Origin: Floridaenema evergladense BLCC-F167
GTDB taxonomy: Bacteria > Cyanobacteriota > Cyanobacteriia > Cyanobacteriales > Aerosakkonemataceae
Assembly (NCBI RefSeq): GCF_041929205.1
Contig: NZ_JBHFNT010000303.1
DNA: 64,000 nucleotides
Strand: one strand, 5' to 3'
Shown: one piece after another, positions 26,668-59,545 of the stretch
How positions within the stretch are numbered: the stretch's first letter is position 1
How the letters are laid out: each line of letters starts with the position of its first letter
Made by a program: the position numbers and the translations under genes
The notes under the pieces: generated by a model
The model's input: only the letters and a program-made list of their open reading frames with translations
Told to the model about the DNA's origin: nothing
The model's database searches: none

Positions 26668-27255
26668 TTAACCAGGAGAAACTATTGCTTTTACCTGAGC
26701 GACAGAATTTTGTTGTAATGCACGAACAGCGAGATCCTCACAAGCAGCTACACTTAATTGGGAAATCGCCTGTTTAATTACCGGGATAGCTGGAGGATTA
26801 ACACTCAACTTATCGATTCCCAAACCTAACAAAATTGCTGTAGCGGCAGGCTCGGCAGCTAGTTCACCACATAAACTCACCCAGATTCCCGCCCGATGAG
26901 CAGCTTGAACTGTTTGCTGCACCATGAGTAACACAGCTGGGTGCATCGCATCAGCCAAAGCAGCTACTTGTGGGTGAGTGCGATCGCTAGCCATCACATA
27001 CTGACTCAAATCATTAGTCCCAATACAAAAAAAGTCTACCTCCGCTGCTAAGCGCGAGGCAAGCACCACTGCTGAAGGTACTTCGATCATAATTCCCAAA
27101 GAAATCGTTCCCGCAACCGGAATATTCGGTTGACGCAGTTCCGACTGCACTTCCGAAAGGATTCCTTTGGCAGCTTTAACTTCCTCTAGAGGGGCAATTC
27201 CCATACTACGCCCATTCATGTTCACTCGTCTGCACAAATCTGCTATTTGTGACAA
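26668..27255 (-). pseudogene. C-terminal fragment of a PEP-utilizing enzyme (PtsI-like TIM-barrel domain), N-terminally truncated
   Basis: GIMIEVPSAVVLASRLAAEVDFFCIGTNDLSQYVMASDR...CGELAAEPAATAILLGLGID matches the Enzyme I C-terminal domain (FFSIGTNDLTQY). At 195 aa it is far shorter than a full ~570-aa enzyme, and no upstream domains are present. Confidence 0.5.
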
Positions 27256-32304: not shown

Positions 32305-33327
32305 ACCTTATAAGCTTGTTGGTGCTGGTGGTAATCCAGAACTGATTTTGGAGAGATGAGTAATCTAGGTACTCAATAAACAGTGAGGTCTTATGTGGCA
32401 TAGTCTTTAATTTTGTGCGCCATGGCGCACAAATTCAAGGATGCAGAATTTTTTAGCTCTTTTAGATTAGCAGCCCCCTGTTCACAGACATTTGACAGTC
32501 CTTGGATCATAATGATCATAATGATCAGATTTGTGAACAAAAATGGAACCCTTACTGAATAAAGGTTTAAGACGACGAAAAAATATTTTTGGGTAAGCCG
32601 AGGGGTATTTCTGGGTAAGCCGAGGGGTATTTTTCTGTGTACAGGCTGAATATTAGTATTGGCAAGGGTTTGGGACTTTTGGTTAACTCAAGGGGTATTA
32701 TTGTTCACTAACTCTTAATGAAGCTAAAATGCAAGTGGATAAGGCTTTTCAGATGTTCTAGTTCAGATTGAGTTTCCTGTTCACAAGGAGTCATTAGATA
32801 CGCCTCATTCAGTGCAAAGAGTACCTGATTCATACAAGTCTCATCTCATTGCTCGCTATGTTTATCCAACTAACGCAGTACTGCCTAAGTTCAGTCTCGC
32901 AAAACAGTCTTGAGGAACTGAAGCAGCGAAGCTCACTACTTCAGTTCACCCGCGACAGATTGCCAATCTGGAACTGATTTTAACTGCTTCAGGTCAGGTT
33001 CAGTCCTTTCGATATAAGCAAGTAAGATTGTCGGAAGCTGGATGCGATGAAAGTTGCACATCCAGATTTAACAGAGAGGGGCGAGGGGTATTGACTGCTC
33101 CTCAATTCCTGTCTCAAATTACTTAAACTTGCTCATTCATTCAGCTAGAACCAGCAAATGAGCAAGTTTAACCTAAACACGAAACTAAGAAAGCGGTAAA
33201 AACAAATGATTAATTCATTAGCTTTTTAAATAGCTCAATAACTGAATTAAATTATTATTTAAAGTTTTTAAAGGTCGGGATTAAATATGTTAGAATTAAC
33301 CAATATACATATTAAGTAATTGCTTAA
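32305..33327. promoter_or_regulatory. non-coding region with iteron-like direct repeats and palindromes; putative replication origin / rep promoter
   Basis: About 1 kb has no convincing ORF. It contains the 22-bp palindrome TTTGTGCGCCATGGCGCACAAA (32412-32433). GATCATAAT is tandemly repeated 2.6 times (32505-32528), flanked by inverted TGTTCACA/TGTGAACA. The 20-mer GGGTAAGCCGAGGGGTATTT is repeated in tandem (32591-32610, 32613-32632). GAGGGGTATT cores recur at 32691 and 33082. CCTGTTCACA recurs at 32776. Confidence 0.35.
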
Positions 33328-34548
33328 ATGCTGAAAAGTTTTAAGACAAAGCTAAACCTAAATAACCAGCAAAGAACATTAGCTTCTCAACACGCAGGGG
33401 TTTCTCGTCACGCTTGGAATTGGGGTTTAAATGTTTGTCTTACAGCAAAAGATGCTCAGGAAAAGCGACCAAGTGCTATTGACTTACATAAGCGATTAGT
33501 AGCAGAAGTTAAATCAGTTAATCCTTGGTATTATCAAGTTTCCAAATGCGCTCCTCAACAAGCGTTAAGATATTTAGATGAAGCATTTAAACGTTGTTTT
33601 AAAGTTCCGGGGACTCGTCAACCTAAGTTTAAAAAGAAAAATATTAAAGACAGTTTCTATCTAGAAGGAAATATTAAGATTTCTGGCAATCAGATCAAAA
33701 TCCCTAAGTTTGGCTGGGTTAAATGTTATGAAATCCTCCCAACAGTTCAACCTAAAAATGTCACCATTTCCAAAAAAGCAAATGATTGGTATATCAGCTT
33801 TAGATACGAGTTAGAGCCATCGCCAATTCGCCATACTAGAAAGCGGATCGGAGTTGACGTAGGAATTAATGCTCTGGCTACTTGTTCGGATGGTACAGTT
33901 TTTCCTAACCGGAAAGCTTATCGAAAGGCTAAAAGAAAGTTAGCTCATCTGCAACGGTCTTTCTGTCGTAAGCAACTCGGTTCAAAAAACCGCGCCAAAG
34001 CAAATCTAAAGGTAGCTAGATTGCATAGAAAAGTTGCTAACATCAGACAAGACGCATTGCACAAACTAACAACTTGGCTAGCTAAAAACCACAGCGAAAT
34101 TGTGATAGAGAATTTAAACGTCTCTGGAATGCTAAGAAATCATAGATTGGCTAGTGCTCTTGCTGATTGTGGATTCTATGAATTTAAAAGGCAACTTGAA
34201 TATAAAGCTAGTTGGTATGGTTCAACAGTAATTAGAGTTGACAGGTTTTACCCAAGCTCGCAACTTTGTAGTTGTTGTCATCATCGTCAAAAAATGCCAC
34301 TCTCAAAAAGAATTTTTAAGTGTGGCAATTGTGGGATGGAGTTAGATAGAGATTTGAATGCCAGTATTAATTTAGAAAATTGGCACGCCATTATTGAATT
34401 TCCAACAACCGTTAGCTCAACGGGGATTGCTTGTGGAGAGTTAAGTAAACTTAATGGTTCAACTGTTAAGGATTCGATGAAGCAAGAAGAAAACGTTAAA
34501 TTTACTTGGTTTGCAGCTTCGTTCTGTGACCAAAGTAAGTTTGAGTAA
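33328..34548 (+). CDS. tnpB: IS200/IS605-family accessory protein TnpB (OrfB, RuvC-like + zinc finger)
   Basis: 406 aa. Typical TnpB N-terminus ...NQQRTLASQHAGVSRHAWNWGL.... The RuvC-like core is IGVDVGINALATCSDG. The C-terminal zinc finger is CSCCHHRQKMPLSKRIFKCGNCGMELDRDLNASINL. No tnpA is adjacent. Confidence 0.85.
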   Translation: MLKSFKTKLNLNNQQRTLASQHAGVSRHAWNWGLNVCLTAKDAQEKRPSAIDLHKRLVAEVKSVNPWYYQVSKCAPQQALRYLDEAFKRCFKVPGTRQPKFKKKNIKDSFYLEGNIKISGNQIKIPKFGWVKCYEILPTVQPKNVTISKKANDWYISFRYELEPSPIRHTRKRIGVDVGINALATCSDGTVFPNRKAYRKAKRKLAHLQRSFCRKQLGSKNRAKANLKVARLHRKVANIRQDALHKLTTWLAKNHSEIVIENLNVSGMLRNHRLASALADCGFYEFKRQLEYKASWYGSTVIRVDRFYPSSQLCSCCHHRQKMPLSKRIFKCGNCGMELDRDLNASINLENWHAIIEFPTTVSSTGIACGELSKLNGSTVKDSMKQEENVKFTWFAASFCDQSKFE

Positions 34549-41073: not shown

Positions 41074-41805
41074 TTGAATCCAATGATGGGAAATCTTAAA
41101 CAATATCAACTGCCAGTAAAAGTAGGAGATTGCCTTGATTACTTACGTTCGCTCCAGCTGCAAACAATTTTACTAGAGCTTTACGGGCAACTTTTTCCCA
41201 TCCAATGGAGCAATTCTACTATCCCATTGTTCCAACAATCTCATCCCACAGTATACACAGACCGAGAAATCGAATTTTTGCAACTGCTTAATACTTGGTT
41301 TCCCATTGAATATTACGAAGAATTGGAAACAATTGAGGAAAGATATACAGAAATTTATCTGTATCCACAAAACATTAGTTGGTGGAATCAAACATTCGAG
41401 GAACTCAGTCAAGTAGAACAATTTATCATCAGTTTACTAGATTGGGGATACGAGCGGGAAAAATGGGAATCGGTTTTTGGTTTTAGCTCTACTTACACTG
41501 CTAAACCAGAAGAAATTAACTGGGAAAAGTTAGAACGATTATGCCAAACAAAAAAACCGCCATTACAATACTTCAGCAACGTAATTAGCATCATCGACCA
41601 TAGTTCAGACTGCATTTGGCTAGACCTGACTGATGAAAGTTATGAATCCTTGGCTTGGAGTAAAGAGAATATCATTTACCTAAAAAGCCAATGGGGAAAA
41701 GCACTTGAATTACAGCAGCAAATGGCAGAATTTTCAGTTTGGTTTGAAACGAAAGTCGAACACAAAAAAGCCGCCTTAAAACTGTGGAACCAATCTAAAA
41801 AATGA
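41074..41805 (+). CDS. acidic alpha-helical protein, candidate 6E-like component of the Ubl-conjugation operon
   Basis: 243 aa, Glu-rich helical (EIEFLQLL..EYYEELETIEERYTEIY..). It overlaps the E2-like gene start (ATGA), so it sits in an operon with the E2/JAB/E1 genes. Confidence 0.3.
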   Translation: MNPMMGNLKQYQLPVKVGDCLDYLRSLQLQTILLELYGQLFPIQWSNSTIPLFQQSHPTVYTDREIEFLQLLNTWFPIEYYEELETIEERYTEIYLYPQNISWWNQTFEELSQVEQFIISLLDWGYEREKWESVFGFSSTYTAKPEEINWEKLERLCQTKKPPLQYFSNVISIIDHSSDCIWLDLTDESYESLAWSKENIIYLKSQWGKALELQQQMAEFSVWFETKVEHKKAALKLWNQSKK

Positions 41806-42488
41806 ACGTACCATTACCACCTCTAAACATTGGAAAACTGGTGCAAACGATTGTTCCTCAAACCGAGTTGGGTGAAGTACAAGCCCAACTCTTATTTTTG
41901 TCGGGACAGTACGTTTTGATTTACAAAGAACAGGAAAAAACCCATTGTAAATTTGTATCACCAGCCGCAATAGCAAGAGCTTTTACCAATACAGTAATTG
42001 ATTCGGGTTGGCTTGATTGTCATACCGTCCGCTGGGGACATGGTTTATCTGGGGAATGGATAGTGCAGTACTACCCACCGCAGCAGTATCAAATTCTGTG
42101 TGAAAACAATGAATGGCGAATTCCCCTACCTGCCTTCGTATTTATAGGCTATCGGACTAGGTACTGGATTTGGGCATCGAAAACTAAACAGTTTGACCCG
42201 AATGCGGCTTTGTACGCCGCACCTCTACCTAATGTTTATGGTGATGGTGCAATTTGCTTTGGCGAACTGCATCCACCTGATTGTACGCCAAGCCAAATCG
42301 GAGTAGCCTGGAAAATATTTTGGCAGAGTAATTTCAGCAACCATCTAATTCAAGGTAAATCAAAGCACTACCCTCAAGACGTGCTTAAGCAATTAATGCA
42401 GGTGAAAAACAAACGAATTTATCCCAGCAAAGACTTAGTGATTTTCAACAAATCCCTCGACGTTATTTGCCAAGGCATTATCAGATGA
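41802..42488 (+). CDS. prokaryotic E2-like (UBC-fold) protein
   Basis: PLPNVYGDGAICFGELHPPD matches the E2 active-site signature HPN(I/V)...G.IC...L. The catalytic Cys is at nt 42255-42257. 228 aa. Confidence 0.55.
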   Translation: MNVPLPPLNIGKLVQTIVPQTELGEVQAQLLFLSGQYVLIYKEQEKTHCKFVSPAAIARAFTNTVIDSGWLDCHTVRWGHGLSGEWIVQYYPPQQYQILCENNEWRIPLPAFVFIGYRTRYWIWASKTKQFDPNAALYAAPLPNVYGDGAICFGELHPPDCTPSQIGVAWKIFWQSNFSNHLIQGKSKHYPQDVLKQLMQVKNKRIYPSKDLVIFNKSLDVICQGIIR

Positions 42489-43228
42489 AAATTCCTCAAT
42501 TTGTAGAGTATAAAACGGCTTTTGATGCAAGTTTACCACCAATAACTGCTAGCGCACTCGAATATTGGTTATCCAGAAATGGCGTATTTATTCGAGCACA
42601 GCGACAAGGATTAAAAGCTTGTTTCCCCATCGCTAACTGTCGCATTGCTTCCTTGGCAGTAATAGAACCTTATTTTCAGATGGAATACCCTCGCGTACCG
42701 TTGGAAATAACCAAATTGATGTGGTTACTTAGTGAGTCAGCAGGCGAAAATGAAATACTTTTTCACCTATCCTTTGAAACCGGAGGTTGGCATTTAGAAA
42801 TTCCCGCCCAAATTGCTACACCAACGAGCGTTACACCTTTAATCAGTTCGGTTAATTCATCTTATGAAACAGCATTGATTGAAGTGCATTCTCATGCCAA
42901 CATGAGTAGTGAATTTTCGGAAGCAGATAATCGAGAAGAAACTGGATTTAGAATTTTTGCCATTCTAGGTAAGCTGAGAAGCCAACCGGAAATTAATACT
43001 CGAAGTGACGTTCTCTCCCGCCCGAGCTTGCGCTATAACGGGAGCTTCTCACTTCAGAATAAAGATAGCTGTACGCCATCCCCACCTGAGAAAGCTTCAC
43101 ACTTCACAGGCTGGGTATCCCCTAAGCCTCTGTGTGCAGACAAGATGAGTCCCACCTCGTTTAATGCTCGTTCTAATATATTTCGAGCGGCGTTTTCATC
43201 TCTATCCATTGCTAGGCCGCACTTATGA
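42467..43228 (+). CDS. JAB/MPN+ (JAMM) metalloprotease-domain protein; C-terminus probably disrupted by IS
   Basis: JAMM motif ...WHLEIP...IEVHSHANMSSEFSEAD (E ... HxH-x7-S-xx-D) at nt ~42885-42925. The ORF then runs into the 3' end region of the minus-strand tnpB (from ~42980). Its distal part is therefore probably IS-derived read-through. Confidence 0.5.
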   Translation: MPRHYQMKIPQFVEYKTAFDASLPPITASALEYWLSRNGVFIRAQRQGLKACFPIANCRIASLAVIEPYFQMEYPRVPLEITKLMWLLSESAGENEILFHLSFETGGWHLEIPAQIATPTSVTPLISSVNSSYETALIEVHSHANMSSEFSEADNREETGFRIFAILGKLRSQPEINTRSDVLSRPSLRYNGSFSLQNKDSCTPSPPEKASHFTGWVSPKPLCADKMSPTSFNARSNIFRAAFSSLSIARPHL

Positions 43229-44343
43229 CATTCGTGCAGGCGAATAGATAGAGTTTTCGGTACTTTTGCGCCACAACTTGAGCAATTTTGAGATGTTCCA
43301 TGAGGACTTACTTTTACAATTCGGACACCGCATTTAACTGCCACTGCGTCCAAAATGGTAATGAACCTCCCCCATGCTGCATCCAAAATTGATTTGCTCA
43401 ATCTTGTTCGAGCAAGCCCTTTGATGTTTAGATCTTCTACCGCAATTAAGTCATACCTTTTGACTAAATTGTGAGCGGTGTTATAGTGAAAGTTTTCCCT
43501 AATCCGACCAATTCTCTGATGAATTCTGGCTATCTTATTTTTCTGCTTGTTAGAGCGATTCGACCCCTTTTTTGACCTTGCTAACTTACGTTGTTGACGA
43601 GCCAAATGAGACTGAGTTTTGCGGTAGATTTGTTGAATGGGAACTGTCTCACCTTCAGAAGTGGTAAGAAATTCCTTGAGTCCCACATCAATGCCAATAA
43701 CTGTTTTCACCTCATCCAATGGCTTATGTTCGGGTACAGTTTCATCCTCCATAGAAATACAGCAGTACCACCCATCAGCTTTGCGAACAATGGTGCAAGT
43801 TTTTAGGGTAAATCCATCAGGAAGAGGACGATGTAAGATGACTAGCATCTCTCCTATCTTTGACAGTTTCAACACACCATTGTTAAGATGCGCTCCTGCT
43901 TTTGGACAATTTATTCGTGGGTAAACGAATGACCGCAACTCATCAACTTTTTTAAATTTGGGTCTACCACCTCGCTTGCCTGATTTATCAGGAAATAACC
44001 AACGCTCGATCGCCTTATTCAATCTTTGCAAATTAACTTGCTGTGACTCTGACCAAATATTTTTGTACTCAGGAAACAACACTTTAGTTTGCTTTAGATC
44101 CGACTGCTGCGTGTAGTAATTAACAGTTGCAGGTATCTCTCCGATTGGCTCATAAATTATACTGCAACGGTCAATTTGACATCTGGTTCGTCGTAGCCAA
44201 TCTAACCTCTGCTCCAGACAATAATTCCAATGCCGTCGAAGCAACTCTAATGTATGGAGCATAGTTGCTTCTTGTTTGGCATTGGGTTTAATTCGGTAGC
44301 AGTAAGTTAGAATCATAGCTGTTATTTTACAGCTTATCGCCAA
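43054..44343 (-). CDS. tnpB: IS200/IS605-family TnpB (OrfB)
   Basis: 429 aa. RuvC-like IGIDVGLKEFLTTSEG. Zinc finger CSSCGAKVPKTLSIRLHECHKCGLAMDRDENAARNI. No tnpA is present. Confidence 0.85.
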   Translation of the reverse strand: MAISCKITAMILTYCYRIKPNAKQEATMLHTLELLRRHWNYCLEQRLDWLRRTRCQIDRCSIIYEPIGEIPATVNYYTQQSDLKQTKVLFPEYKNIWSESQQVNLQRLNKAIERWLFPDKSGKRGGRPKFKKVDELRSFVYPRINCPKAGAHLNNGVLKLSKIGEMLVILHRPLPDGFTLKTCTIVRKADGWYCCISMEDETVPEHKPLDEVKTVIGIDVGLKEFLTTSEGETVPIQQIYRKTQSHLARQQRKLARSKKGSNRSNKQKNKIARIHQRIGRIRENFHYNTAHNLVKRYDLIAVEDLNIKGLARTRLSKSILDAAWGRFITILDAVAVKCGVRIVKVSPHGTSQNCSSCGAKVPKTLSIRLHECHKCGLAMDRDENAARNILERALNEVGLILSAHRGLGDTQPVKCEAFSGGDGVQLSLF

Positions 44344-44422: not shown

Positions 44423-45091
44423 TTGGTAGACCCGGATATTATTGAGGCGAAGAACATTCCCAGACAGAACTTTATTGAAAGTGAAATTGGCAGTAATAAA
44501 GCCTTAGTTCTAGCCACTAGATACAACCTAGCATTAGGCAGCAATTTAACTGCTATTCCCAAACCTTTTCATCAAGATTTATTAGATAGTTGGTGGACGG
44601 GTTTAACAATAATTATTGGTTGTGTGGATAATGCAGCAGCCCGTTACCAAATAAGTCAATGTCTGGAATTGAATCAAAATAAAGAACCGGATATTTGGTA
44701 TTTGGATTGTGGGAATCATGCCAATTCAAATTCGGGACAAGTGTTACTTGGTTCCACCAATCAATTTCAACTAAAAAATGCTTTCGATAACCCAGAAAAA
44801 CCCAGTTTTTGTATTAACTTACCTTCGCCTACTTTGCAGCATCCTGAATTACTAGAAGCGCTACCTGAAGAACTGAGTAATACCTCGCTTTCTTGTGCAG
44901 AAATTGCATTGCGTAACCAACAAGCATTATTTGTAAATCAACAAGTAGCTGCTATAGCCACAGAGTACGTAAAATCTCTTGTATTAACAGGAGGATTGAG
45001 AAGGTTTGCTACTTACTTTAATAGTGATATTGGTTCAATGCGATCGCGCTACATTTGTTCCCAAAATATAACACAATATAACACAACATGA
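44423..45091 (+). CDS. E1-like (ThiF/MoeB/UBA-fold) protein, N-terminal Rossmann GxGxxG segment missing (probably IS-disrupted)
   Basis: (TGSTL)VDPDIIEAKNIPRQNF matches the E1 ...G.L.LVD.D.VE.SNL.RQ motif. IIIGCVDNAAARYQI matches the E1 DN...R motif (nt ~44623-44650). The reading frame is open from 44366. The nucleotide-binding GxGxxG that should precede it is absent. LSCAEI is a candidate catalytic Cys. Confidence 0.5.
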   Translation: MVDPDIIEAKNIPRQNFIESEIGSNKALVLATRYNLALGSNLTAIPKPFHQDLLDSWWTGLTIIIGCVDNAAARYQISQCLELNQNKEPDIWYLDCGNHANSNSGQVLLGSTNQFQLKNAFDNPEKPSFCINLPSPTLQHPELLEALPEELSNTSLSCAEIALRNQQALFVNQQVAAIATEYVKSLVLTGGLRRFATYFNSDIGSMRSRYICSQNITQYNTT

Positions 45092-51019: not shown

Positions 51020-51955
51020 TTATTCTCTTCTGGGCAGATTGAACTGAACGATAAATTGCTGAAAATCAGATAAGGATTCAACGGTAACAGCTTCCCTATG
51101 CAGCGTTTTCAGTAAGTCAGAATCTAGTACATCAGTAATGCTATCGACCAACTCTTTTGGTACTTCTCCAAACCGAATTTTCAGAACTTCAATGATATAC
51201 TCATACCCAATTAAACGCTCAGGTGTGGTAGCATAACGCATTTTATTTTCCTCCTCAAAACGTTTGATTTCTTGAGTAAACCCACTTTCCAAATCTCCTG
51301 GCAATGTCATCATCCAGTCAATTAATCGAAATAATTCACGGATTTCAGCCCGATTATAACCTCGTTCAAACAGACTCTTGACAATGCTTAATTTCCACTC
51401 TAACCGTTCTTGAGGTTTTCCACTTGTCGCCTGCGTTTTCAAGTGCGCCATAACGAGAGGAGCGAAAGGGTTGATACTTGCTTCTAAAGTTTGCCAGTCC
51501 TGTTGATAGTCTAGCAACTTAACCATCGAAAACCTTAACAAAACCCTAGTTCCCCAGATTTCATAACTGTACTCTTGGGGTCGCCAAGATTTTTCTGAGT
51601 CGGCTAAAATTGCTAAATTCGCCACTTTTTTCCGATAAATACCAAAAATGCGACTGTTGTAAACATACATTCTTTCCGCAAAAGTTGATTGGTATTGACT
51701 TTGCACTTCTAAATGAATCAACACCCAAGTTTCTTGACCATTAGTTAACCACACTTTAACTAATTTATCAGCTTCTCGTTGTCCTAATTCGTCATCCCGC
51801 ATCACTTGTCTGAGTTCGTTATCCAGAAATTCATGGGGGATTTTCCAGTCTATTTGTTCGTAGATATCCGGGAAAAAGAAAGCAATAAAAGATTTAAAGT
51901 AGACAGCGATAGCTTCTTTCCAAGGATTATCATAATCATCCCGTTGTTTAGACAT
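51020..51955 (-). CDS. Rpn-family / PD-(D/E)xK recombination-promoting nuclease (putative transposase, DUF4351-type)
   Basis: DYDNPWKEAIAVYFKSFIAFFFPDIYEQIDWKIPHEFLDNELRQ...WVLIHLEVQSQYQSTFAERMYVYNSRI matches the abundant cyanobacterial family pattern (D.D...K.L...F...FFP....ID.s..EFLD.EL ... IHIE.QSQ...F..RM..Y). Confidence 0.6.
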   Translation of the reverse strand: MSKQRDDYDNPWKEAIAVYFKSFIAFFFPDIYEQIDWKIPHEFLDNELRQVMRDDELGQREADKLVKVWLTNGQETWVLIHLEVQSQYQSTFAERMYVYNSRIFGIYRKKVANLAILADSEKSWRPQEYSYEIWGTRVLLRFSMVKLLDYQQDWQTLEASINPFAPLVMAHLKTQATSGKPQERLEWKLSIVKSLFERGYNRAEIRELFRLIDWMMTLPGDLESGFTQEIKRFEEENKMRYATTPERLIGYEYIIEVLKIRFGEVPKELVDSITDVLDSDLLKTLHREAVTVESLSDFQQFIVQFNLPRRE

Positions 51956-52055
51956 ATTCCTCGATTTTATTAGTCCAATTAAAAGTATACATTAGACAAA
52001 ACTTTCTTTTCCCCTAGCGGGGATTCTCTGGGAACTTTTGTGAAAAACTGGAATA

Positions 52056-53411
52056 ATGCACCAACCATTATCACTCAAATATCGACCAAAAAACCTGGCA
52101 AGTTTAGTAGGTCAAGAACCCATCAAAATCGCCCTAACAAATGCAGTAACTTCTGCTAAAATTGCCCCAGCTTATTTGTTTACCGGGCCAAGAGGAACAG
52201 GTAAAACCTCCACAGCACGCATTCTAGCCAAATCGTTAAATTGTCTCAATTCGTCAGTTCCGACAGCAAATCCTTGCCAAAAATGTGTATCATGTAAAGC
52301 AATTGATGCAGGCAATAGTTTGGATGTAAGTGAAATTGATGCAGCTAGTCATAATGGGGTAGAAGATGCTAGAGAATTAATCGAACGCAGCAATTTTGCA
52401 CCAGTAATGAGTCGGTATCGGATATTCGTTTTAGATGAATGCCACCAACTTAGTAGTAGTGCTCAAAATGCGCTGCTAAAATGTATCGAAGAACCACCAT
52501 CTCATGTGGTATTTATTCTCTGTACGACTGAAGCACACAAGGTATTACCAACTATTAGTTCGCGCTGTCAAACGTTTAACTTTAAAGCACTCTCTATGGA
52601 GGCAATTGTCGAACAATTGTCACGAGTAGCTGTTCAAGAATCAATCGCCATTACAGAGGAAGCAAATAAGCTAATTGCACGACATTCAGAGGGTGGATTA
52701 AGAGATGCTTTGCAATTGCTTTCTCAATTATCGCTGATGGGAGAACAAATTACACCAGAGCGTGTAGTAGAAGTGTCTGGTGGGATTCGTTCTCACGATT
52801 TAGCTACGATTGTCAAAGCTATCTGTGCTGGTGACGTACTGACAATATTACAATCAGCAAGAACTCTAATTGATAGTGGTAAAACACCGAAATTGATTTT
52901 GAGTAGCCTGTTGGCAGTTTACCGCGATTTACTGATTGTTAAAAGCGTACCCAAAAGTGAGAATGTAGTCGCCGGAACTCTGAATTATTCGCAATTGCGA
53001 CAAGTTGCTAACAAGCTAGATTTTCCTAGCATAGATGCAGCTTTGATGCAGTTACAAAAATCAGAAAGTCAGTTGAGAGTAACGACTAATGGTGCTACTT
53101 GGTTAGAAGTATGCTTGCTCAATTTGATTTACAATAATCAAGAGCAGCATAATCGAAACGGAAATGGTAAAGCAGGAGAATTGAGTTCCGTTTGGATGAA
53201 GGTTATTGAAGCTACAAAACCAGCTAATCGCAGCTTACTTTCTCGTGCCAAATTAATCAGTTTAAATGAGAGTAACTGTGTACTAGCTGTTCCACCATCT
53301 GATGTAAAGAAGTTTCAAAGCAACGTTGCATTAGTAGAACGAATTGTTAGTCGAGTATTGGGTTATCCGGTTACGATTAAGCTCGAACAAAGGAAGGAAC
53401 TGTCAGTATGA
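52056..53411 (+). CDS. dnaX: DNA polymerase III gamma/tau subunit (DnaX), short gamma-like form
   Basis: YLFTGPRGTGKTSTARILAKSLNC. Zinc module CQKCVSCKAI. Walker B/SRC region RIFVLDECHQLSSSAQNALLKCIEEPPSHVVFILCTTEAHKVLPTISSRCQTFNF. At 451 aa it lacks the tau C-terminal domains. Confidence 0.85.
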   Translation: MHQPLSLKYRPKNLASLVGQEPIKIALTNAVTSAKIAPAYLFTGPRGTGKTSTARILAKSLNCLNSSVPTANPCQKCVSCKAIDAGNSLDVSEIDAASHNGVEDARELIERSNFAPVMSRYRIFVLDECHQLSSSAQNALLKCIEEPPSHVVFILCTTEAHKVLPTISSRCQTFNFKALSMEAIVEQLSRVAVQESIAITEEANKLIARHSEGGLRDALQLLSQLSLMGEQITPERVVEVSGGIRSHDLATIVKAICAGDVLTILQSARTLIDSGKTPKLILSSLLAVYRDLLIVKSVPKSENVVAGTLNYSQLRQVANKLDFPSIDAALMQLQKSESQLRVTTNGATWLEVCLLNLIYNNQEQHNRNGNGKAGELSSVWMKVIEATKPANRSLLSRAKLISLNESNCVLAVPPSDVKKFQSNVALVERIVSRVLGYPVTIKLEQRKELSV

Positions 53412-54361
53412 TAACGCTATTAGTTGGCAACGATACTGAAGCAATTAAGCAAGAATTGGCAACATTAAAAGCACACACGCATCCCCGGTGGCGAGACTTT
53501 AATGTACATCAATTTAGTGCCGAACAATTAAGTGCTGCCATGATGAGTGCTTTTTCAATTCCTTTTGGTGAAGGTGGCAAACTAATTATTGTAGAAAACT
53601 GTGATTTCAAACAGTTTGGTGAAACTGGATTAGAGATGTTGCAACCTTTATCCATGTTACCCAAAACTACCCATTTGGTATTTACGGCTAATTCGATTGA
53701 TAAGCGACTGAAGGTAACTAAACATTTGTTATCGTTAGGTAAGCTCAAAGAGTTGGCTTTGATTCCACCTTGGCGTACTGACTTAATCGAACAAGCGCTC
53801 GGCAATACTGCTAAACAAATGCAGTTAACTATTGCTCGTGATGCTGTAAACTATTTAGCTCAAGCTATTGGTAATGATACTACCAGAATGGTGAAAGAAT
53901 TGTCAAAGTTAGCTGTCTATGCCGCAGGTGCAAAAATTACCAAAGAGCAGGCTATTGCGTTAATTCCCATCACTACAAGTAACAGTTTACAATTAGCTCA
54001 AGCATTACTAAAACGTGAAATTGTTGTCATTGTTCAAATAGTACGCGAATTACTATCTCGTGCTGAATTTCCTTTAGTAATTGTGGCTACTCTCATTACT
54101 CAGTTTAAGACTTGGTTGTGGGTAAAAGCAGCATTAGTAGCTAAACGCTCTGACTCAGAAATTGCTACTTTGTGCGGCTTAGGCAATCCCAAACGAATGT
54201 ATTTCTTACGGCAAGAGATAAATGAGGTTTCGACAAATTACTTGTCAAAAGTACTTTCGATGCTATTTGAGTTGGAAGTTGAACTAAAAAGTGGAGAAAA
54301 GGCTGATTCCATACTGCCAGCATTGTTGAGAATTGTACAGGTACCCTCGCATACTCAGTAG
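53408..54361 (+). CDS. DNA polymerase III delta subunit (HolA)-like
   Basis: Overlaps the dnaX stop (ATGA). 317 aa and helical. Assigned from its position as a clamp-loader partner and its size. Motif-level support is weak. Confidence 0.45.
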   Translation: MITLLVGNDTEAIKQELATLKAHTHPRWRDFNVHQFSAEQLSAAMMSAFSIPFGEGGKLIIVENCDFKQFGETGLEMLQPLSMLPKTTHLVFTANSIDKRLKVTKHLLSLGKLKELALIPPWRTDLIEQALGNTAKQMQLTIARDAVNYLAQAIGNDTTRMVKELSKLAVYAAGAKITKEQAIALIPITTSNSLQLAQALLKREIVVIVQIVRELLSRAEFPLVIVATLITQFKTWLWVKAALVAKRSDSEIATLCGLGNPKRMYFLRQEINEVSTNYLSKVLSMLFELEVELKSGEKADSILPALLRIVQVPSHTQ

Positions 54362-54376
54362 ACGAAAAGCGAAAAG

Positions 54377-54494
54377 GTAGGGGTTAGGGGGTAGGGGGTA
54401 GGTGTTAGGGAATCTTTAGGTGATAGGGCTCAGGTGGTAGGGGATGGGGAAAAAGACTCTTCCCTAACACCCAACCCCTAACCCCTACTCCCCG
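54377..54494. repeat. G-rich heptamer repeats (GGGGTAG/GGGTTAG) arranged as long imperfect inverted repeat (hairpin)
   Basis: Left arm GGTAGGGGTTAGGGGGTAGGGGGTAGGTGTTAGGG. Right arm CCCTAACACCCAACCCCTAACCCCTACTCCCC. It lies directly after the holA-like stop. STRR-like heptamers are typical of filamentous cyanobacteria. Confidence 0.55.
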
Positions 54495-54647
54495 CACCCA
54501 AGATTTACTCATACTACATAGTCATGCTACAATAATGGGGCAAGTAGTAATACATGAACTGGCTATGGTTTGGGTTCTTTTTGCCTAACTGGTGCGCCAA
54601 CCGCTGGATTGCGCGTATACCGCACAGAAATGCGTGACTACTCAGTA

Positions 54648-54720
54648 GTTTGATTAGCTCAGTGGTAGAGCATCCGAACGCATCGGTAGGACGTAGGTTC
54701 AATCCCTACATCAAACACCA
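54648..54720 (+). tRNA. tRNA-like gene (probable degenerate/pseudo-tRNA; anticodon arm does not fold canonically)
   Basis: Perfect 7-bp acceptor (GTTTGAT/ATCAAAC). D-arm GCTCAGTGGTAGAGC. T-arm GTAGGTTCAATCCCTAC. Encoded ACCA 3' end. The anticodon region ATCCGAACGCATCGGTA gives only 3-4 bp of stem and no U33. Confidence 0.45.
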
Positions 54721-54796
54721 GGAAGTTAGCTCAATGGGTAGAGCGATCGACTGAAAATTCGATTTGTCGCAGGTTCAAATCCTGTACTTTCAACCA
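54721..54796 (+). tRNA. tRNA-like gene, anticodon loop CTGAAAAT (GAA, Phe-like) but 8-nt loop and imperfect acceptor
   Basis: D-arm GCTCAATGGGTAGAGC. Anticodon stem ATCGA/TCGAT with 8-nt loop CTGAAAAT. T-arm GCAGGTTCAAATCCTGT. The acceptor GGAAGTT/ACTTTCA pairs at only 5 of 7 positions. The 3' end is ACCA. Confidence 0.45.
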
Positions 54797-55175
54797 ACCC
54801 TGTCCGGGTCAAAAGACACTACTTTTTGGAAGTAGCTTACCTCAACTCTCTAACAAACTCTGCAATGTAGGTGTGTACTAGGGATAGTAACAGTAAAGAA
54901 GCCAGTGCAATTGTTTTCTCTCTAACTTGAGTATGTCCTTCATTGTCTTTATCCAGTTTTCCTAGATACAACAAACTGAACGGCATATCTGAGGATTGCG
55001 ATCTTTTTCTGAGTACTCTACTCACGAAGTAGCAATCATCTTAATCCAGTCCGAGAAGAAGCAACTCGCCCGCAACCGAACTGCAAACACCTACATTTGC
55101 AGATTTGACAATCTGTGTAGTATCTATGTAGCATAAAGTTAATAGTAAAAACCTAAGTCGTCTGAGCAATTTTCT

Positions 55176-56693
55176 ATGTGGAAAACATTTTATATTAAAC
55201 CTAACGAAATTGGAATTTTGTATCACCGTAGTGATTTCCAAAAAATTTTGCAGCCGGGGACTTACACTTATTTTGGTTGGCACTGGCAAGTCAAAACCTA
55301 CGATCTCAATCAACCAGAGGTAAAGATTGAGAACTTGGAGCTATTACTGCGAGATCGTAGTGCGGAGTTAGAACCATACTTATTAGTAGTAAGAACTGCA
55401 TTCAATCAAGCTGCTTTAGTACGAGTAGGACAAAATTGGCTCAGTGTTTTACCCAATCGATTGCGAGCTTTTTGGCGCGGTTTTATTGAAGTAGAATCTT
55501 ATCTTTTCAATTTGAATGAAAGTTTGGAATTACCAGCCGAGTTTAGAGAACAAATACGTAAGATTGCCTTGGATGGAATCCAGAAGTTCTTAATTTCCGA
55601 GTCGGAAATTGGTTTACTTTACGTGCAGAAAAACTTCGTGCGATCGCTCGAACCAGGCGAATATGCTTTTTGGACTGTCGAACGAGTTGTTTTAGTTCAC
55701 AATCTCAGTCGAATTATACCCAATCCAGACTTTCCCTTGCCAGATGTATTGATCGAGCAACATCCTGATTTCGTAGCAGCTTACTGCGAAACGGTGCAAT
55801 TACAAAATCATCAGGTAGCCATTGTTCGCTATCAAGGTAAAGTTATTTCTATTCTCCCACCCACTATTCGGAAACTATTTTGGCGAGGTGTGGAAGTAGA
55901 GGTAATTGATATCAGCAATGATGCTAAATTACCAACTAATTTAGTGGCAGAATTAGTCTTGAATGCGCCAGAGAGAGTTCGCAATTTTTTGCATATTCAA
56001 GAAGTGCCAGCACAGCACGTTGGATTACTTTACATCAATCAAGAGTTTCAAACCCAACTTCAGCCAGGAATACACGCTTGGTGGATATTTGGACGTTCTT
56101 GGCAGACGGAAGCTATTGATTTGAGATTGCAAACGATCGAAGTATCCGGTCAAGATATTCTCTCTAAAGATAAAGTACCTTTGCGGTTGAATTTAACTGC
56201 TGGGTTTCGCATTCTAGATCCATTAAAAGCCAAAAACGGCTTATCCGATATTGCTGGTTTCTTATACAAGGAACTACAATTTGGTTTGCGGGGAGCAGTG
56301 GGCGAACGTACTCTAGATGCTTTACTAGAAAATAAAGGAGCAGTCGATAAAAGTGTAGCTGAATATATCGAGCAAAAAACTGCCGACTATGGAATTGAAA
56401 TTAATTCCGTTGGGGTCAAAGATATTATTTTACCTGGCGAGATTAAGACAATTTTGAGTAAGGTGGTAGAGGCAGAGAAATCTGCTCAAGCTAACGTAGT
56501 ACGTCGTCGGGAAGAAACTGCTGCTACTCGCAGTATGTTGAATACGGCGAAAGTGATGGAAGATAATCCGGTGGCTTTACGTTTGAAAGAGTTAGAAGTG
56601 TTAGAAAGAATTGCTGAGAAGATCGATCGCATTCAAGTTAACGGTAGCTTGGATAGCATTTTGACCGACTTAATTCGGCTCAACCGGGAATAA
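55176..56693 (+). CDS. SPFH/band-7 domain protein with triplicated N-terminal segment
   Basis: The C-terminal ~250 aa form an SPFH core (...DILSKDKVPLRLNLTAGFRILDPLKA...GIEINSVGVKDIILPGEIKTILSKVVEAEKSAQANVVRRRE...). Three N-terminal repeats have the form E.G.LY....F...LQPG.Y.FW. Confidence 0.7.
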   Translation: MWKTFYIKPNEIGILYHRSDFQKILQPGTYTYFGWHWQVKTYDLNQPEVKIENLELLLRDRSAELEPYLLVVRTAFNQAALVRVGQNWLSVLPNRLRAFWRGFIEVESYLFNLNESLELPAEFREQIRKIALDGIQKFLISESEIGLLYVQKNFVRSLEPGEYAFWTVERVVLVHNLSRIIPNPDFPLPDVLIEQHPDFVAAYCETVQLQNHQVAIVRYQGKVISILPPTIRKLFWRGVEVEVIDISNDAKLPTNLVAELVLNAPERVRNFLHIQEVPAQHVGLLYINQEFQTQLQPGIHAWWIFGRSWQTEAIDLRLQTIEVSGQDILSKDKVPLRLNLTAGFRILDPLKAKNGLSDIAGFLYKELQFGLRGAVGERTLDALLENKGAVDKSVAEYIEQKTADYGIEINSVGVKDIILPGEIKTILSKVVEAEKSAQANVVRRREETAATRSMLNTAKVMEDNPVALRLKELEVLERIAEKIDRIQVNGSLDSILTDLIRLNRE

Positions 56694-56788
56694 AATAATA
56701 GTGTGATCGCCGGAGAATTAATCGAGCGATCGCATACACATTGCTGCCATTTGTACTGCTTAATTTTTATTTTTAGCCGCCCCTATCG

Positions 56789-59446
56789 GTGGCGGTAAAT
56801 AGAAGTAATTGTAGTCTACAAATGCAACCAGATTATCTGAAATTACTGGCTCAATTTGAGCAGGAATTCTCTCCTATCTCTCGCCATCAATCAGTAACAG
56901 AAAACCAATTGGTTGAGGCTAACAATCTCCTAGAATTACTAGGAGAAGAGATCATTTGGCATGAAACAACACCTGCAACCAACCCACTCAATAAAAACCT
57001 GCCATCTGATTTACCAAAAGAACTGAAACAAGCTTTACAACAGCAAGGCATAAAACAGCTTTATTCTCACCAAATCAAAGCTCTCAAAGCAGTGCGTCAA
57101 GGTCGAGATATCATCTTATCAACTACAACTAGTTCTGGCAAATCTTTGAGCGCATATCTTCCGATTTTATCAGGAGTAATGCAGCATGATTATACCGCCT
57201 TAGCTTTTTATGGATTAAGAGCCTTAACATCAGACCAAGGTCAAAAAGTTGCTAACTTAATCAAATCTATTCCCCAGTCTACACAACCTCGATTAGCGAT
57301 GCTAACCGGAGATACTAGCAAAGAGGAAAGAGAAAGATTATTAGCAACTAATCCTCAAATTATTGGAGCTACGCCGGAATTAATTCACTTTGCACTTAGA
57401 GGAGTTCATTGGAGTCAACCTTGGCAGCAATTCTTGAGCAAACTGCGTTACGTGCTAATTGATGAAGCGCACACTTTCAATGGTGTTTATGGAGCAAATA
57501 TGGCAGCTTTAATTCGGCGGTTAAAGTTAGCAGTTGATGGTAATGGTGGTAATTCTAATCAACTACAATTCATCTTTTTGAGTGCTACAATTGGTAATCC
57601 AGTAGAATTGGCTAGGAGATTATCTAGTAGAAATCGTCACCGTAATTCAACTAAACCAGATAGATTGGTTTGGATTAATTCCAGTGGAGCAGCTACACCT
57701 TCTCGACAGTTAATTGTCACTAAACCTAGCCATAATGCTAACCCAGATGCAGCGAGAATTATCTTGTTTTTATTGCAATCTGGACAAAGCGGGATTTGTT
57801 TTTGTAATGGCAGACAAGCTATTAAGAATTTGTGGTCAACTTTACGACAAGAGGCGATTCAACAAGGTTATAGTAGCATTGAAAAACAAGTAGCTATATT
57901 CTATAGCAGTTTAACTAGCCAGCGTCGTACCGAAATAATTCAACAATTAGAACTAGGCCAGATTCGATGTATTATTAGTACCAGTTCGTTGGAAGCTGGA
58001 ATTGACCTACCACAACTGGATTATGTAATTATTAGAGGTTGGCCTGGAAGTTTGCAAGCATTTCGACAAAGATTAGGAAGAGCAGGGAGAGTAAAAGCTG
58101 GTTTAGCTGTTTTTATTCCGATTGCTCAATTACCTTTGGATAATTATTTTGCTACACATCCTCAGTTGTTATTAGGAGCTCCGTCAGAACAGGTTAGCTT
58201 TAGTACCAATTACCCGATAGACTTAGCCAAACATTTGATGTGTGCCGCAGTAGAAACGGGAATTCCTGTGACTAAACTCAAGTACTATTTTGGTAAATTG
58301 GCGCTGACTATTGCCACAGCTTTGATGGAACAGGGAGTCATGCACAAAAGTCGCGGTCGATTATGGGCGAAAGGATTTCCCCATAAAGATGTTAACTTTC
58401 GGGGTGGAATAAACAGCAGCACAGTTCAATTGGTAGATGCGGAATTTGGAGAAGAAGTTGAAAGTTTAAGTGCTGAAATTGCTATCCATGAAGTGTTCCC
58501 TGGTGCAATTTACCGAACGCAAAATTCGGACGGACAATTAGTAACTTATCGCTCGGAAACTCTGGAATTGCAAATGGGAAAAGCCCTATTGCAGTTAATT
58601 ACAGAAACTCCGTTGTTTACGACTGCTGTCAATCGTGTTGATACCTGTATCCATCAAGAATTGAGTACGCCTAAAATTGTTCCTTTGCTTGTGTCAACAG
58701 CAGAAAGTAATGGTTCAACTCAAGTTCCGTTATCGATACAATTGAGTTTAGGTTGGGGTGAAATTAGTCAACAAGTGACTGGGTATCAATTACTAACCAG
58801 GTCATACAAGTTAACTTGTTTGCAGAAAAAGTGCGTAAATTATAAGGAAGGATTGAACGAGCGTACTCATTGTCCAGCTTGTGGTAAACGGTTGCGGAAA
58901 GCGGAGTTAACAACGGTACTTAATGAAGTTGAGTTTGAGCAACCTTATGCTATCAAGTTTAGTACTCCTGTTGTCCAGATTAGTGTTAGCGAATCAGTTA
59001 ATCGATACTGGCAAGAAATTGTAGTTCGGACTCGCACTCAACTGTTGCAAACCAAGCAACCAATTCCGACAAATTATCAACAACTATGGGAATATCCAGC
59101 GCAGTTTTTAGTAATTCATAGTTTTGGGCATCAGATTTTAGCAGCTTTGCCATTGGTGGTATTGGCTGGGATGAATGATGTGAGTTTTCGGGTAGAAAAA
59201 AGAGGAATTGCAGATTATGTTGGTTTATTTTATGACAGGGTTGAAGGTGGTTCCGGTAGTGCGGAGGCAATTTTTAAGCAGTTACCAAAACTTGCTAAAG
59301 TAGGAGGTGAATTAGCTCGGAATTGTGAATGCGAATCCGGTTGTCCTAAGTGTTTGATTCAACCTGGTTGTCCTGATGGTAATAAAGGTTTGCTCAAAGA
59401 ATTGGGACTGCTTTTATGTGATGCGCTTTCATTAATTGAAGCATAA
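56789..59446 (+). CDS. DEAD/DEAH-box helicase with C-terminal DUF1998 zinc-ribbon domain (MrfA/YprA-like; DrmA/DrmB-like architecture)
   Basis: Motif I TTTSSGKSL. Motif II LIDEAHTFNG. Motif III LSATIGNP. Motif VI-like QRLGRAGR. C-terminal Cys cluster CECESGCPKCLIQPGCPDGN. Confidence 0.7.
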   Translation: MAVNRSNCSLQMQPDYLKLLAQFEQEFSPISRHQSVTENQLVEANNLLELLGEEIIWHETTPATNPLNKNLPSDLPKELKQALQQQGIKQLYSHQIKALKAVRQGRDIILSTTTSSGKSLSAYLPILSGVMQHDYTALAFYGLRALTSDQGQKVANLIKSIPQSTQPRLAMLTGDTSKEERERLLATNPQIIGATPELIHFALRGVHWSQPWQQFLSKLRYVLIDEAHTFNGVYGANMAALIRRLKLAVDGNGGNSNQLQFIFLSATIGNPVELARRLSSRNRHRNSTKPDRLVWINSSGAATPSRQLIVTKPSHNANPDAARIILFLLQSGQSGICFCNGRQAIKNLWSTLRQEAIQQGYSSIEKQVAIFYSSLTSQRRTEIIQQLELGQIRCIISTSSLEAGIDLPQLDYVIIRGWPGSLQAFRQRLGRAGRVKAGLAVFIPIAQLPLDNYFATHPQLLLGAPSEQVSFSTNYPIDLAKHLMCAAVETGIPVTKLKYYFGKLALTIATALMEQGVMHKSRGRLWAKGFPHKDVNFRGGINSSTVQLVDAEFGEEVESLSAEIAIHEVFPGAIYRTQNSDGQLVTYRSETLELQMGKALLQLITETPLFTTAVNRVDTCIHQELSTPKIVPLLVSTAESNGSTQVPLSIQLSLGWGEISQQVTGYQLLTRSYKLTCLQKKCVNYKEGLNERTHCPACGKRLRKAELTTVLNEVEFEQPYAIKFSTPVVQISVSESVNRYWQEIVVRTRTQLLQTKQPIPTNYQQLWEYPAQFLVIHSFGHQILAALPLVVLAGMNDVSFRVEKRGIADYVGLFYDRVEGGSGSAEAIFKQLPKLAKVGGELARNCECESGCPKCLIQPGCPDGNKGLLKELGLLLCDALSLIEA

Positions 59447-59545
59447 TCCGATTAGGTGAACTTGGGGAAGTGTATTATTTAATAAGCGCTTCTCCAAAGC
59501 GCTTTCCAAAAGATTCAATTGAGAAATGCGAGTATAGCTTCTGGC

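Follow-up and report, generated by a model that had tools for sequence, protein, structure and literature searches.

In Anabaena, extra tRNA-type genes outside the housekeeping set are held in a trn L-array, and arrays of this kind can comprise up to 43 tRNA genes and spread by horizontal transfer (PMC8421152; PMC10272220). Inducibility by translation inhibitors comes from two 9-nt direct repeats that span the -10 element and the transcription start (PMC8421152), and TGTAGTAT is the site of the TrcR repressor at the trn tRNA array (PMC10272220). In a trcR mutant, alr0739 is de-repressed 72-fold and alr0740, which encodes a slipin, 42-fold; TrcR shifts the alr0739 promoter in electrophoretic mobility shift assays, and the authors treat this promoter as driving alr0739-alr0740 (PMC10272220). 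The slipin gene is also de-repressed by translation inhibitors, along with the 26-gene trn array and rtcB (PMC10272220; PMC8421152). Neither paper mentions tRNA-like genes upstream of alr0739/alr0740. A second known system, the bacterial Y RNAs YrlA and YrlB, encoded next to rsr and rtcB, mimics tRNA in the T arm, D arm and acceptor (PMC4201824). Here we analysed a 64-kb stretch of DNA from Floridaenema evergladense BLCC-F167 (contig NZ_JBHFNT010000303.1; hereafter the window, with positions counted from its first letter), in which 2 odd tRNA-shaped genes stand upstream of an orthologue of alr0740. They belong to a module of leader RNA, tRNA-like genes and slipin gene that is apparently undescribed and widely conserved in cyanobacteria and in Beggiatoa-like sulfur bacteria. 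No description of it was found in the literature on tRNA arrays with SPFH, slipin or band 7 genes, or on alr0739.

Two tRNA-shaped genes and a structured leader upstream of slipin

ARAGORN reported only 2 tRNA-shaped genes in the whole 64 kb, labelled 'Ala cgc' and '??? gaaa', and no transfer-messenger RNA (tmRNA) in the window. Both were also recovered by the Rfam tRNA model RF00005, with 56.6 bits (tRNA1) and 55.8 bits (tRNA2) against a gathering score of 29, which bears out an original prediction, made from the letters of the sequence, of 2 head-to-tail tRNA-shaped genes with normal D and T arms and an encoded ACCA. tRNA1, which represents type A (54648-54720, plus strand), has the acceptor GUUUGAU/AUCAAAC paired at 7 of 7 positions, A73, an encoded CCA and, in the Rfam alignment and in its fold, normal D and T arms. 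tRNA2, which represents type B (54720-54796, plus strand), has the acceptor AGGAAGU/ACUUUCA, A73 and an encoded CCA, and A54720 is common to both genes, closing the CCA of tRNA1 and opening tRNA2. The tRNA2 acceptor, given as 5/7 in the prediction, comprises 5 Watson-Crick pairs plus G3·U70 (6/7 counting G·U) and an A1·A72 mismatch. Both genes keep the body of a canonical tRNA (acceptor, U8, G18G19 in the D arm, GTTC-type T loop and discriminator), and neither has the canonical anticodon arm with a 5-bp stem, a 7-nt loop, U33 and a purine at 37, as had been predicted. tRNA1 forms a 4-bp stem (CCGA/UCGG) closed by the 5-nt loop ACGCA or, in the ARAGORN reading, a 3-bp stem with a 7-nt loop that lacks U33; tRNA2 has a 5-bp stem (AUCGA/UCGAU) and an 8-nt loop, CUGAAAAU. 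To judge from these arms, neither gene looks able to decode normally in this genome.

Both types form families whose cloverleaves are under constraint. In the type A alignment (A5, 27 distinct sequences) 97.2% of the cells are paired and 12 of the 21 pairs show double changes, a level of pairing reached by none of 500 shuffles and far from the slid controls (26-41%). The type B alignment (A2, 35 sequences, acceptor consensus nGAAAGU/ACUUUCn) is paired in 95.4% of its cells, with 8 of 21 pairs double-changed and again none of 500 shuffles reaching it. Read from these alignments, compensatory substitutions across many genomes keep both cloverleaves, and the decay favoured by the original prediction does not account for this. 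The anticodon stems share in it: all 5 pairs of type A and 4 of the 5 of type B show compensatory changes. Among the 35 type B sequences, 26 leave position 1:72 unpaired, and so, by eye, do Beggiatoa-type relatives.

The acceptor, D and T arms are far better conserved than the anticodon loop, and a 7-nt loop with U33 and R37 is missing from 31 of the 65 distinct tRNA-like sequences. Type B nevertheless retains C32 in 27, U36 in 33, A37 in 28 and A38 in 28 of its 35 members; most of its loops follow the frame C32-U33-N-N-U36-A37-A38, in which only positions 34 and 35 switch, and its anticodons (CAU, UAU, GAU, AAU, CUU, UUU, GUU and UCU) all read ANN codons. The sequence UGUAUCG is identical in 9 type B members, whose stem it lengthens to 7 bp around a UAU triloop, and the loop of the window, CUGAAAAU, is the sole 8-nt loop among the 35. 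Type A falls into 2 groups, one with canonical loops and one, including the window, with the 4-bp CCGA/UCGG stem and loops of 4-6 nt; the short arm also occurs in L018, L022, L025, L027, L031, L043, L044 and L063. The first of these loci, L018, is [Phormidium ambiguum] IAM M-71; its type B gene and that of the window show 5 differences, of which the loop accounts for 4 (CTGAAAAT in the window, CTCTTAA in [Phormidium ambiguum]: 3 substitutions and 1 insertion). Concerted evolution of the 2 types, as an explanation of anticodons shared by A and B within a genome, was not retained; a rough hand count found such sharing in ~7 of 26 genomes, which is not clearly above chance.

Searches for the pair beyond slipin loci returned little. 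An exact 40-mer of tRNA2, too specific a pattern, matched Floridaenema aerugineum alone among species-representative genomes; the tRNA1 anticodon-arm pattern matched nothing in viral contigs; the only matches there of a degenerate pattern for 8-nt Phe-type loops were ordinary tRNA-Phe genes; and BLAST for plasmid relatives gave only generic similarity to enterobacterial and other tRNAs. Separately, the type B 5' pattern AAGTTAGCTCA(2-4 nt)GGTAGAGC matched 95 regions of phage contigs (IMG/VR loci L103-L182) and is too generic to interpret; AU-rich acceptor stems like those of type B are frequent among phage tRNAs, a hint that the family may have been mobile in origin.

The ~100 nt upstream of the type A gene are conserved in 40 of 60 cyanobacterial-type loci. 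RNAalifold gave 2 hairpins, to which an outer helix and an inner stem were added by eye, for a total of 28 pairs. The window carries this putative leader domain at 54544-54641 (plus strand), with the outer helix P1 pairing 54544-54548 with 54637-54641 plus a proximal part, hairpin H1 at 54566-54591 and hairpin H2, with the inner stem, at 54592-54618. In an alignment of 30 loci (A4) 91.4% of the cells are paired and 14 of the 28 pairs are changed on both sides, whereas none of 500 shuffles reaches this pairing and slid controls give 27-41%; these compensatory changes support the predicted fold. A covariance model built from the leader alignment (R1) matches the window once, at 54537-54653, with 101.6 bits. 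Outside its training set it matches L020, L044, L063 and L065 with 45-75 bits, the 75 bits falling to L020, in which ARAGORN sees no tRNA, and it finds the Beggiatoa-type loci L075, L077, L078, L083-L085, L087, L088 and L091 with E values from 3e-7 to 2e-4. The model had no match in the loci L013-L015, which carry holA only, and a leader pattern had none in viral contigs.

We then surveyed 80 metagenomic loci, chosen via their slipin gene, for same-strand ARAGORN tRNAs within 1.6 kb upstream, with at least 900 nt of upstream sequence required of cyanobacterial-type loci. At least one such tRNA was present in 40 of 47 cyanobacterial-type and in 14 of 15 distant loci. The slipin is ~80% identical across cyanobacteria, mostly on multi-Mb contigs. 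Slipins of the distant loci are 38-51% identical (42-51% for the Beggiatoa/Thiomargarita-like loci with a leader and a tRNA-like part), and the named relatives of the L091-type slipin, which covers at least part of the distant set, are Thiomargarita, Beggiatoa, Thiotrichaceae and Achromatium. Cyanobacterial loci hold 1 to 3 units and the window 2: in [Phormidium ambiguum] tRNA-like genes sharing the acceptor stems of the window lie upstream of slipin; in L019 (a 248-kb contig) a module of 3 units follows thiG; and the Anabaena PCC 7120 module, at ~860.58-860.82 kb (BA000019.2 ~860580-860821), has a transporter-type (BPD_transp_1) permease gene on one side and alr0739-alr0740 on the other, with its first unit decayed and its second intact. 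As an observation apart, 4 GC-rich metagenomic loci (L093, L094, L097 and L098; slipins 38-50% identical) have 4-7 mostly ordinary-looking tRNA genes upstream, with 1 or 2 odd units, with 6- or 8-nt loops, nearest the slipin, which suggests that accessory tRNA arrays repeatedly have slipin as their 3' neighbour.

The window itself carries the module as we define it, that is, the leader fold immediately 5' of a type A or B gene on the same strand and no more than ~1.5 kb upstream of a slipin gene. We also considered that the pair travels with the replisome genes that precede it, and rejected this: the loci L013-L017, whose holA is 74-85% identical, have neither tRNAs nor leader downstream. Since holA-related loci are without the tRNAs and slipin loci have the tRNA-like genes, the pair moves with slipin and not with holA.

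Candidate promoters and the possible role of the RNAs

The slipin gene (55176-56693, plus strand; 505 aa, Pfam Band_7) is preceded by a predicted promoter at 55105-55134 (plus strand; TTGACA, 18 nt, TAGCAT). Two boxes, TGTAGTAT (55116-55123) and TGTAGCAT (55127-55134), separated by CTA, overlap its -10 hexamer TAGCAT, in the arrangement of the TrcR-regulon operator (2 boxes, 2-3 nt apart, over the -10 and the transcription start). In nearly every cyanobacterial locus, slipin or ydeI-slipin has tandem TGTAGTAT-type boxes ahead of it. A candidate operon promoter upstream of the leader was found by promoter scan (54524-54533, plus strand; extended -10 TGCTACAAT at 54525-54533), and TGCTAcAtT is conserved at the equivalent position in other loci; in Anabaena the counterpart of window positions 54511-54556 is ATGCTACATTGGGTTAC. 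The sequence ATGCTACA (54524-54531), which overlaps this -10, is the reverse complement of the slipin-promoter box TGTAGCAT and resembles the published TrcR half-site ATACTACA (PMC10272220), with one box here against the tandem boxes at the slipin promoter.

Between the tRNA-like genes and the slipin promoter further sequence is conserved. Each tRNA-like unit is followed by a spacer, ACCCTGTCCGGGTCAAAAGACA, and a hairpin, CTACTT/AAGTAG (in the window 54797-54840, plus strand, with the hairpin at 54819-54835), which are kept in [Phormidium ambiguum], in L019 (twice, once per unit) and in Anabaena 7120. Beyond it, non-coding blocks at 54841-55104 (plus strand) stand out in a 17-locus alignment, for example TTTCTCTCTAACTTGAGTATGTCC and CTTAATCCAGT...CGCCCGCAAC.GAACTG.AAACACCTACATTTGCAG. 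No conserved ORF was seen in these blocks, and no Rfam family matches either them or the leader. Together, the ~300 nt from the last tRNA-like unit to the slipin promoter may represent one more structured RNA. By eye, related blocks appear in cyanobacterial and Beggiatoa-type loci alike (compared at L102 3981-4300 and L091 2210-2490), those of the Beggiatoa type including an extra T-arm-like GTGGTTCGAcTCCAC.

The module thus reads, in order, as extended -10 promoter, leader, type A, type B (and a third unit in some genomes), spacer with hairpin, conserved blocks, tandem-box promoter and slipin. We propose that the operon would be transcribed under translational stress, that RNase P and 3' processing would free the leader and 2 CCA-ended tRNA-shaped RNAs, and that these would serve beside slipin as tRNA mimics, for example as ligand, decoy or sensor and not as ordinary decoders, with their specificity lying in the anticodon arm. 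That the pair is the local copy of such a conserved, probably stress-regulated, slipin-linked operon of leader RNA and tRNA mimics has, with this mode of action included, about an even chance in our estimation; membership in the conserved module is much more secure than the role of the RNAs. Several points weigh against the proposal. The link of the RNAs to slipin function would follow from gene neighbourhood only, and a survey whose loci were chosen via slipin cannot show the module away from it. Within the Floridaenema lineage, conservation is uninformative on selection because 53788-55388 is near-identical in the 2 Floridaenema species, in a mosaic pattern. The TrcR-like site at the operon promoter is weak in the window, where the -35 region has been replaced by an insertion. 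Finally, the ANN-reading loop frame is what would be expected of real tRNAs undergoing anticodon shifts, so type B may decode elsewhere.

Two other explanations deserve consideration, each doubtful though far from negligible. The tRNA-like units could be processing punctuation, RNase P and RNase Z signals that define the 3' end of the leader and the 5' end of the downstream RNA, with the tRNA-shaped products as by-products. The outer helix of the leader stops 6 nt before the type A gene, the same conserved spacer follows every unit, the acceptor, D and T arms are far better conserved than the anticodon loop, and L020 retains its leader where no tRNA is called. The eukaryotic mascRNA of MALAT1 is a tRNA-like 3'-end processing module of this kind: a cloverleaf with a loosely constrained anticodon arm directly after a structured non-coding RNA, whose 3' end an RNase P cut would define, as could be the case here. 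In contrast with mascRNA, however, the anticodon stem of the module, and often its loop frame, is under selection, and the compensated stems, the conserved loop positions 32, 36, 37 and 38 and the exact UGUAUCG recurring in many loci weigh against punctuation, because a mere cleavage signal needs none of them. We hold it just as doubtful that the genes are relics, perhaps functional elsewhere, of which both Floridaenema copies have lost their anticodon arms and drift, surviving only through their place between a selected leader and a selected gene. tRNA1 would be unable to present an anticodon, tRNA2 has the sole 8-nt loop and is among the few without U36 of the 35, the insertion disturbed the -35 region, and type A of Anabaena 7120 has decayed to a remnant. 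Yet the CCGA/UCGG arm of tRNA1 is no private lesion, being found in at least 9 distinct sequences from different loci with the cloverleaf otherwise kept; tRNA2 differs from its [Phormidium ambiguum] counterpart at a single position outside the loop, where drift would scatter changes; and by eye the tertiary positions U8, A14, G18G19, G53-C61 and the T loop are intact.

It is very unlikely, in our view, that the pair are working accessory tRNAs, a miniature stress tRNA array in which tRNA2 would act as a naturally occurring +1 suppressor or read UUU(C) as a Phe (possibly Ala) tRNA. ARAGORN reads the 8-nt loop as a quadruplet anticodon gaaa, and an 8-nt loop on an intact 5-bp stem is shared with the +1 suppressors sufD and SufB2 and with engineered quadruplet tRNAs (PMC9094753). 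Many family members have canonical CU-NNU-AA loops, apparently ordinary tRNA arrays precede the distant slipins of L093, L097 and L098, and the tRNAs of the Anabaena trn array are aminoacylated (PMC8421152). In addition, tRNA2 carries G3·U70 together with A73. These 2 features form the alanine identity set, but just 9 of the 35 type B members have G3·U70, for which reason we set it aside as an alanine-identity or tmRNA-like trait, and a mismatch of the A1·A72 type should weaken EF-Tu binding. In classical suppressors an otherwise normal tRNA has gained an insertion next to its anticodon; the loop of tRNA2 did not arise from a cognate tRNA by the addition of one base, because its [Phormidium ambiguum] counterpart is the 7-nt CUCUUAA, and within the family loop length and sequence vary freely. 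This family context and the 1:72 mismatch speak against a chargeable suppressor. The earlier caution that tRNA2 is no textbook frameshift suppressor was reasonable. tRNA1, moreover, should not decode at all, and no frameshift-requiring gene is evident, though no systematic look was made.

The original prediction had regarded the site as a possible element boundary, on the grounds that everything upstream is element-like and everything downstream chromosomal, and had suggested a tRNA integration site. We consider it highly improbable that a conjugative element or plasmid integrated beside these genes with the heptamer hairpin as the junction. A gene-set junction does exist: ParA/ParB, DUF3854, TrbI and plasmid-family dnaN/dnaX/holA genes lie upstream, similarity to other cyanobacteria begins at ~54524, and, as at tRNA attachment (att) sites, tRNA-shaped genes stand between plasmid-like genes and a gene, slipin, that in most relatives is on multi-Mb contigs. 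An integrative and conjugative element or an att site, on the other hand, finds no support. As predicted, no integrase or recombinase domain was found in Pfam scans of all window ORFs of at least 150 aa; neither tRNA 3' half is repeated within the 64 kb (up to 3 mismatches, and short BLAST), although another end could lie outside; and GC content is 0.39-0.41 on both sides, with no step. tRNA-targeting integrases insert at the 3' end of a tRNA, and the element-like genes here lie 5' of the tRNA promoter. Two-component genes lie both before and after the pair (e.g., 18343-20688), and the downstream helicase is equally lineage-specific and defence-like. [Phormidium ambiguum] keeps the same junction with no palindrome; the tRNA-like genes are not housekeeping tRNAs and, unlike att sites, are conserved together with their downstream gene; and the window is nearly the whole of a 65-kb contig.

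The 160-bp insertion, the neighbouring genes and the slipin protein

The gene order in the window is a holA-like ORF (53408-54361, stop TAG at 54359-54361), the palindrome, the type A and type B genes, the conserved blocks and slipin. The ~120-bp inverted repeat of heptamers predicted after the holA stop is present as an imperfect inverted repeat of GGGGTAG/GGGTTAG and their complements at 54377-54499. Tandem Repeats Finder (TRF) gave a period-7 array of GGTAGGG at 54376-54410 and its complement CCCTAAC at 54462-54487, and a repeat search gave palindrome arms of 33 nt (54380-54412 and 54460-54492) that are 85% complementary. The motif GGGGTWRGGGG occurs 3 times in the window against 0.02 expected, always inside the palindrome, and no second heptamer repeat of this kind exists elsewhere in the 64 kb. 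The fold energy is modestly better than that of shuffles (z = -1.66), the modest score being due to a composition that is already G/C-strand-biased.

Pairwise alignment with [Phormidium ambiguum] showed a single clean gap of 160 columns at 54348-54507, a 160-bp insertion that carries the palindrome; in that genome holA directly abuts the module and the palindrome is absent. The insertion is flanked by an imperfect direct repeat, CGCATACT(CAGTAG) and CTCATACT(ACATAG), and it contributes part of a -35-like hexamer. The holA product is shorter in the window (317 aa against 329 aa) because the insertion supplies its stop codon. We read the palindrome as a recent repeat-element insertion at the junction of holA and the module, unrelated to the tRNA-like pair; it would be a small element resembling miniature inverted-repeat transposable elements. 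An exact 10-nt direct repeat, TACTCAGTAG, is found at 54352-54361 (the holA stop) and 54639-54648 (just before tRNA1); it is probably due to chance, as the second site reads CTCAACAG in [Phormidium ambiguum].

The Floridaenema aerugineum contig is 96% identical to the window across 51588-59498. In [Phormidium ambiguum] the order is PIF1-type helicase, dnaN, dnaX, holA, tRNA-like genes, slipin and a DEAD/MZB helicase, as in the window, and holA, dnaX and the downstream helicase adjoin the module only in the Floridaenema/[Phormidium ambiguum] lineage. The dnaN/dnaX/holA set is of plasmid family, the holA family including homologues annotated on Cylindrospermum and Tolypothrix plasmids. The helicase downstream of slipin (56789-59446) has DEAD and MZB (MrfA Zn-binding) domains, with BrxHI and SngC as its best PADLOC matches, and is defence-like. 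Besides ParA/ParB, DUF3854 and TrbI, the plasmid-like genes comprise 2 TnpB genes, an E1/E2 pair and a vault-protein fragment. The TnpB ORFs are of the IS605 family (33328-34548 and 43054-44343), and the second lies between a Prok-E2_D gene (41802-42488) and a ThiF-like E1 fragment (44423-45091), a pair that it may interrupt. An Rfam group II intron domain matches at 33033-33112 with 41.6 bits. In Aerosakkonema (L014) a 137-aa ORF downstream of holA is followed by a gene (5471-5716) for an 81-aa protein with a weak match to the RF-1 (peptidyl-tRNA hydrolase) domain, a gene of the translation-rescue type standing roughly where Floridaenema carries the tRNA-like module.

In the AlphaFold (AF2) model of the slipin (pLDDT 84), 4 beta-rich modules at the N terminus precede an SPFH domain and long helices; by eye, the modules share the motif (E/H)(I/V)G(I/L)LY...PG.Y.(F/W)W and resemble duplicated N-terminal halves of SPFH domains. 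No membrane segment is predicted (maximum 19-aa hydropathy 0.92), and PADLOC has no slipin model. In Foldseek the C-terminal half aligns with stomatin, HflK/C and prohibitin, and the whole chain with the eukaryotic major vault protein (MVP) over ~580-600 columns, with E values down to 1e-13 and a TM score of ~0.3. Like the slipin model, MVP has beta-repeat modules, an SPFH-like shoulder and a long helix, and the slipin gene is tied to small structured RNA genes as the vault is to small vault RNAs; the slipin shows no sequence similarity to MVP, however, and the TM score is low. The likeness, at the level of the predicted model, is a structural resemblance only. A true MVP homologue or fragment does lie in the window, a 398-aa ORF at 27269-28465 (minus strand) with Pfam MVP_shoulder (1e-53), Vault_3 and Vault_4, adjoined by a PEP-utilizers_C fragment at 26668-27255; a sequence-level link between it and the slipin was sought and discarded, the slipin giving only a weak Band_7 match in its N-terminal repeats in Pfam. 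On this model, the slipin, as a soluble protein of vault-like architecture, might form one ribonucleoprotein with the leader and tRNA-shaped RNAs, a cage binding or enclosing the RNAs during translational stress, which we think unlikely. Such a particle would be a bacterial counterpart of the vault with its small RNAs, spanning cyanobacteria and Beggiatoa-like sulfur bacteria, in which the variable anticodon arm would set the recognition of each lineage.

Comparison with known systems and implications

The module shares with the Anabaena TrcR regulon the extra tRNA-type genes, the TGTAGTAT-type operator over the -10 and a slipin, alr0740, that is a published member together with the trn array and rtcB. 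Unlike L-arrays, it has 1 to 3 units, a conserved structured leader and spacers and, among loci chosen by slipin, linkage to that gene; about half of its tRNA-like genes have non-canonical anticodon loops, and 1:72 is unpaired. With the Y RNAs it shares an RNA gene next to that of a presumed partner protein, in a setting of stress or RNA damage. It differs in that its units are complete cloverleaves with CCA, whereas in Y RNAs a stem is fused to the tRNA-like domain; the Rfam YrlA model reaches 19.7 bits against a gathering score of 69, and no Ro/Rsr (TROVE) domain was found in Pfam scans of window ORFs of at least 150 aa.

Tools that search for tRNAs label these units 'tRNA-Ala', 'tRNA-Ile(UAU)', 'tRNA-Met' and so on, which can distort inferences on tRNA sets and codon capacity. 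The module is also a natural experiment on which parts of the tRNA shape matter outside decoding, as it includes, within conserved cloverleaves, anticodon arms that recur although they are non-canonical: an 8-nt loop, a 7-bp stem capped by a UAU triloop and mini-loops of 4-6 nt. Anabaena PCC 7120 makes it testable, since trcR mutants and inducing antibiotics exist. Stress-induced accessory tRNA operons are known from one model cyanobacterium; the slipin module would be a far more widespread, compact relative, which adds a leader with no Rfam match and 1 to 3 tRNA look-alikes beside a known slipin gene of the stress regulon.

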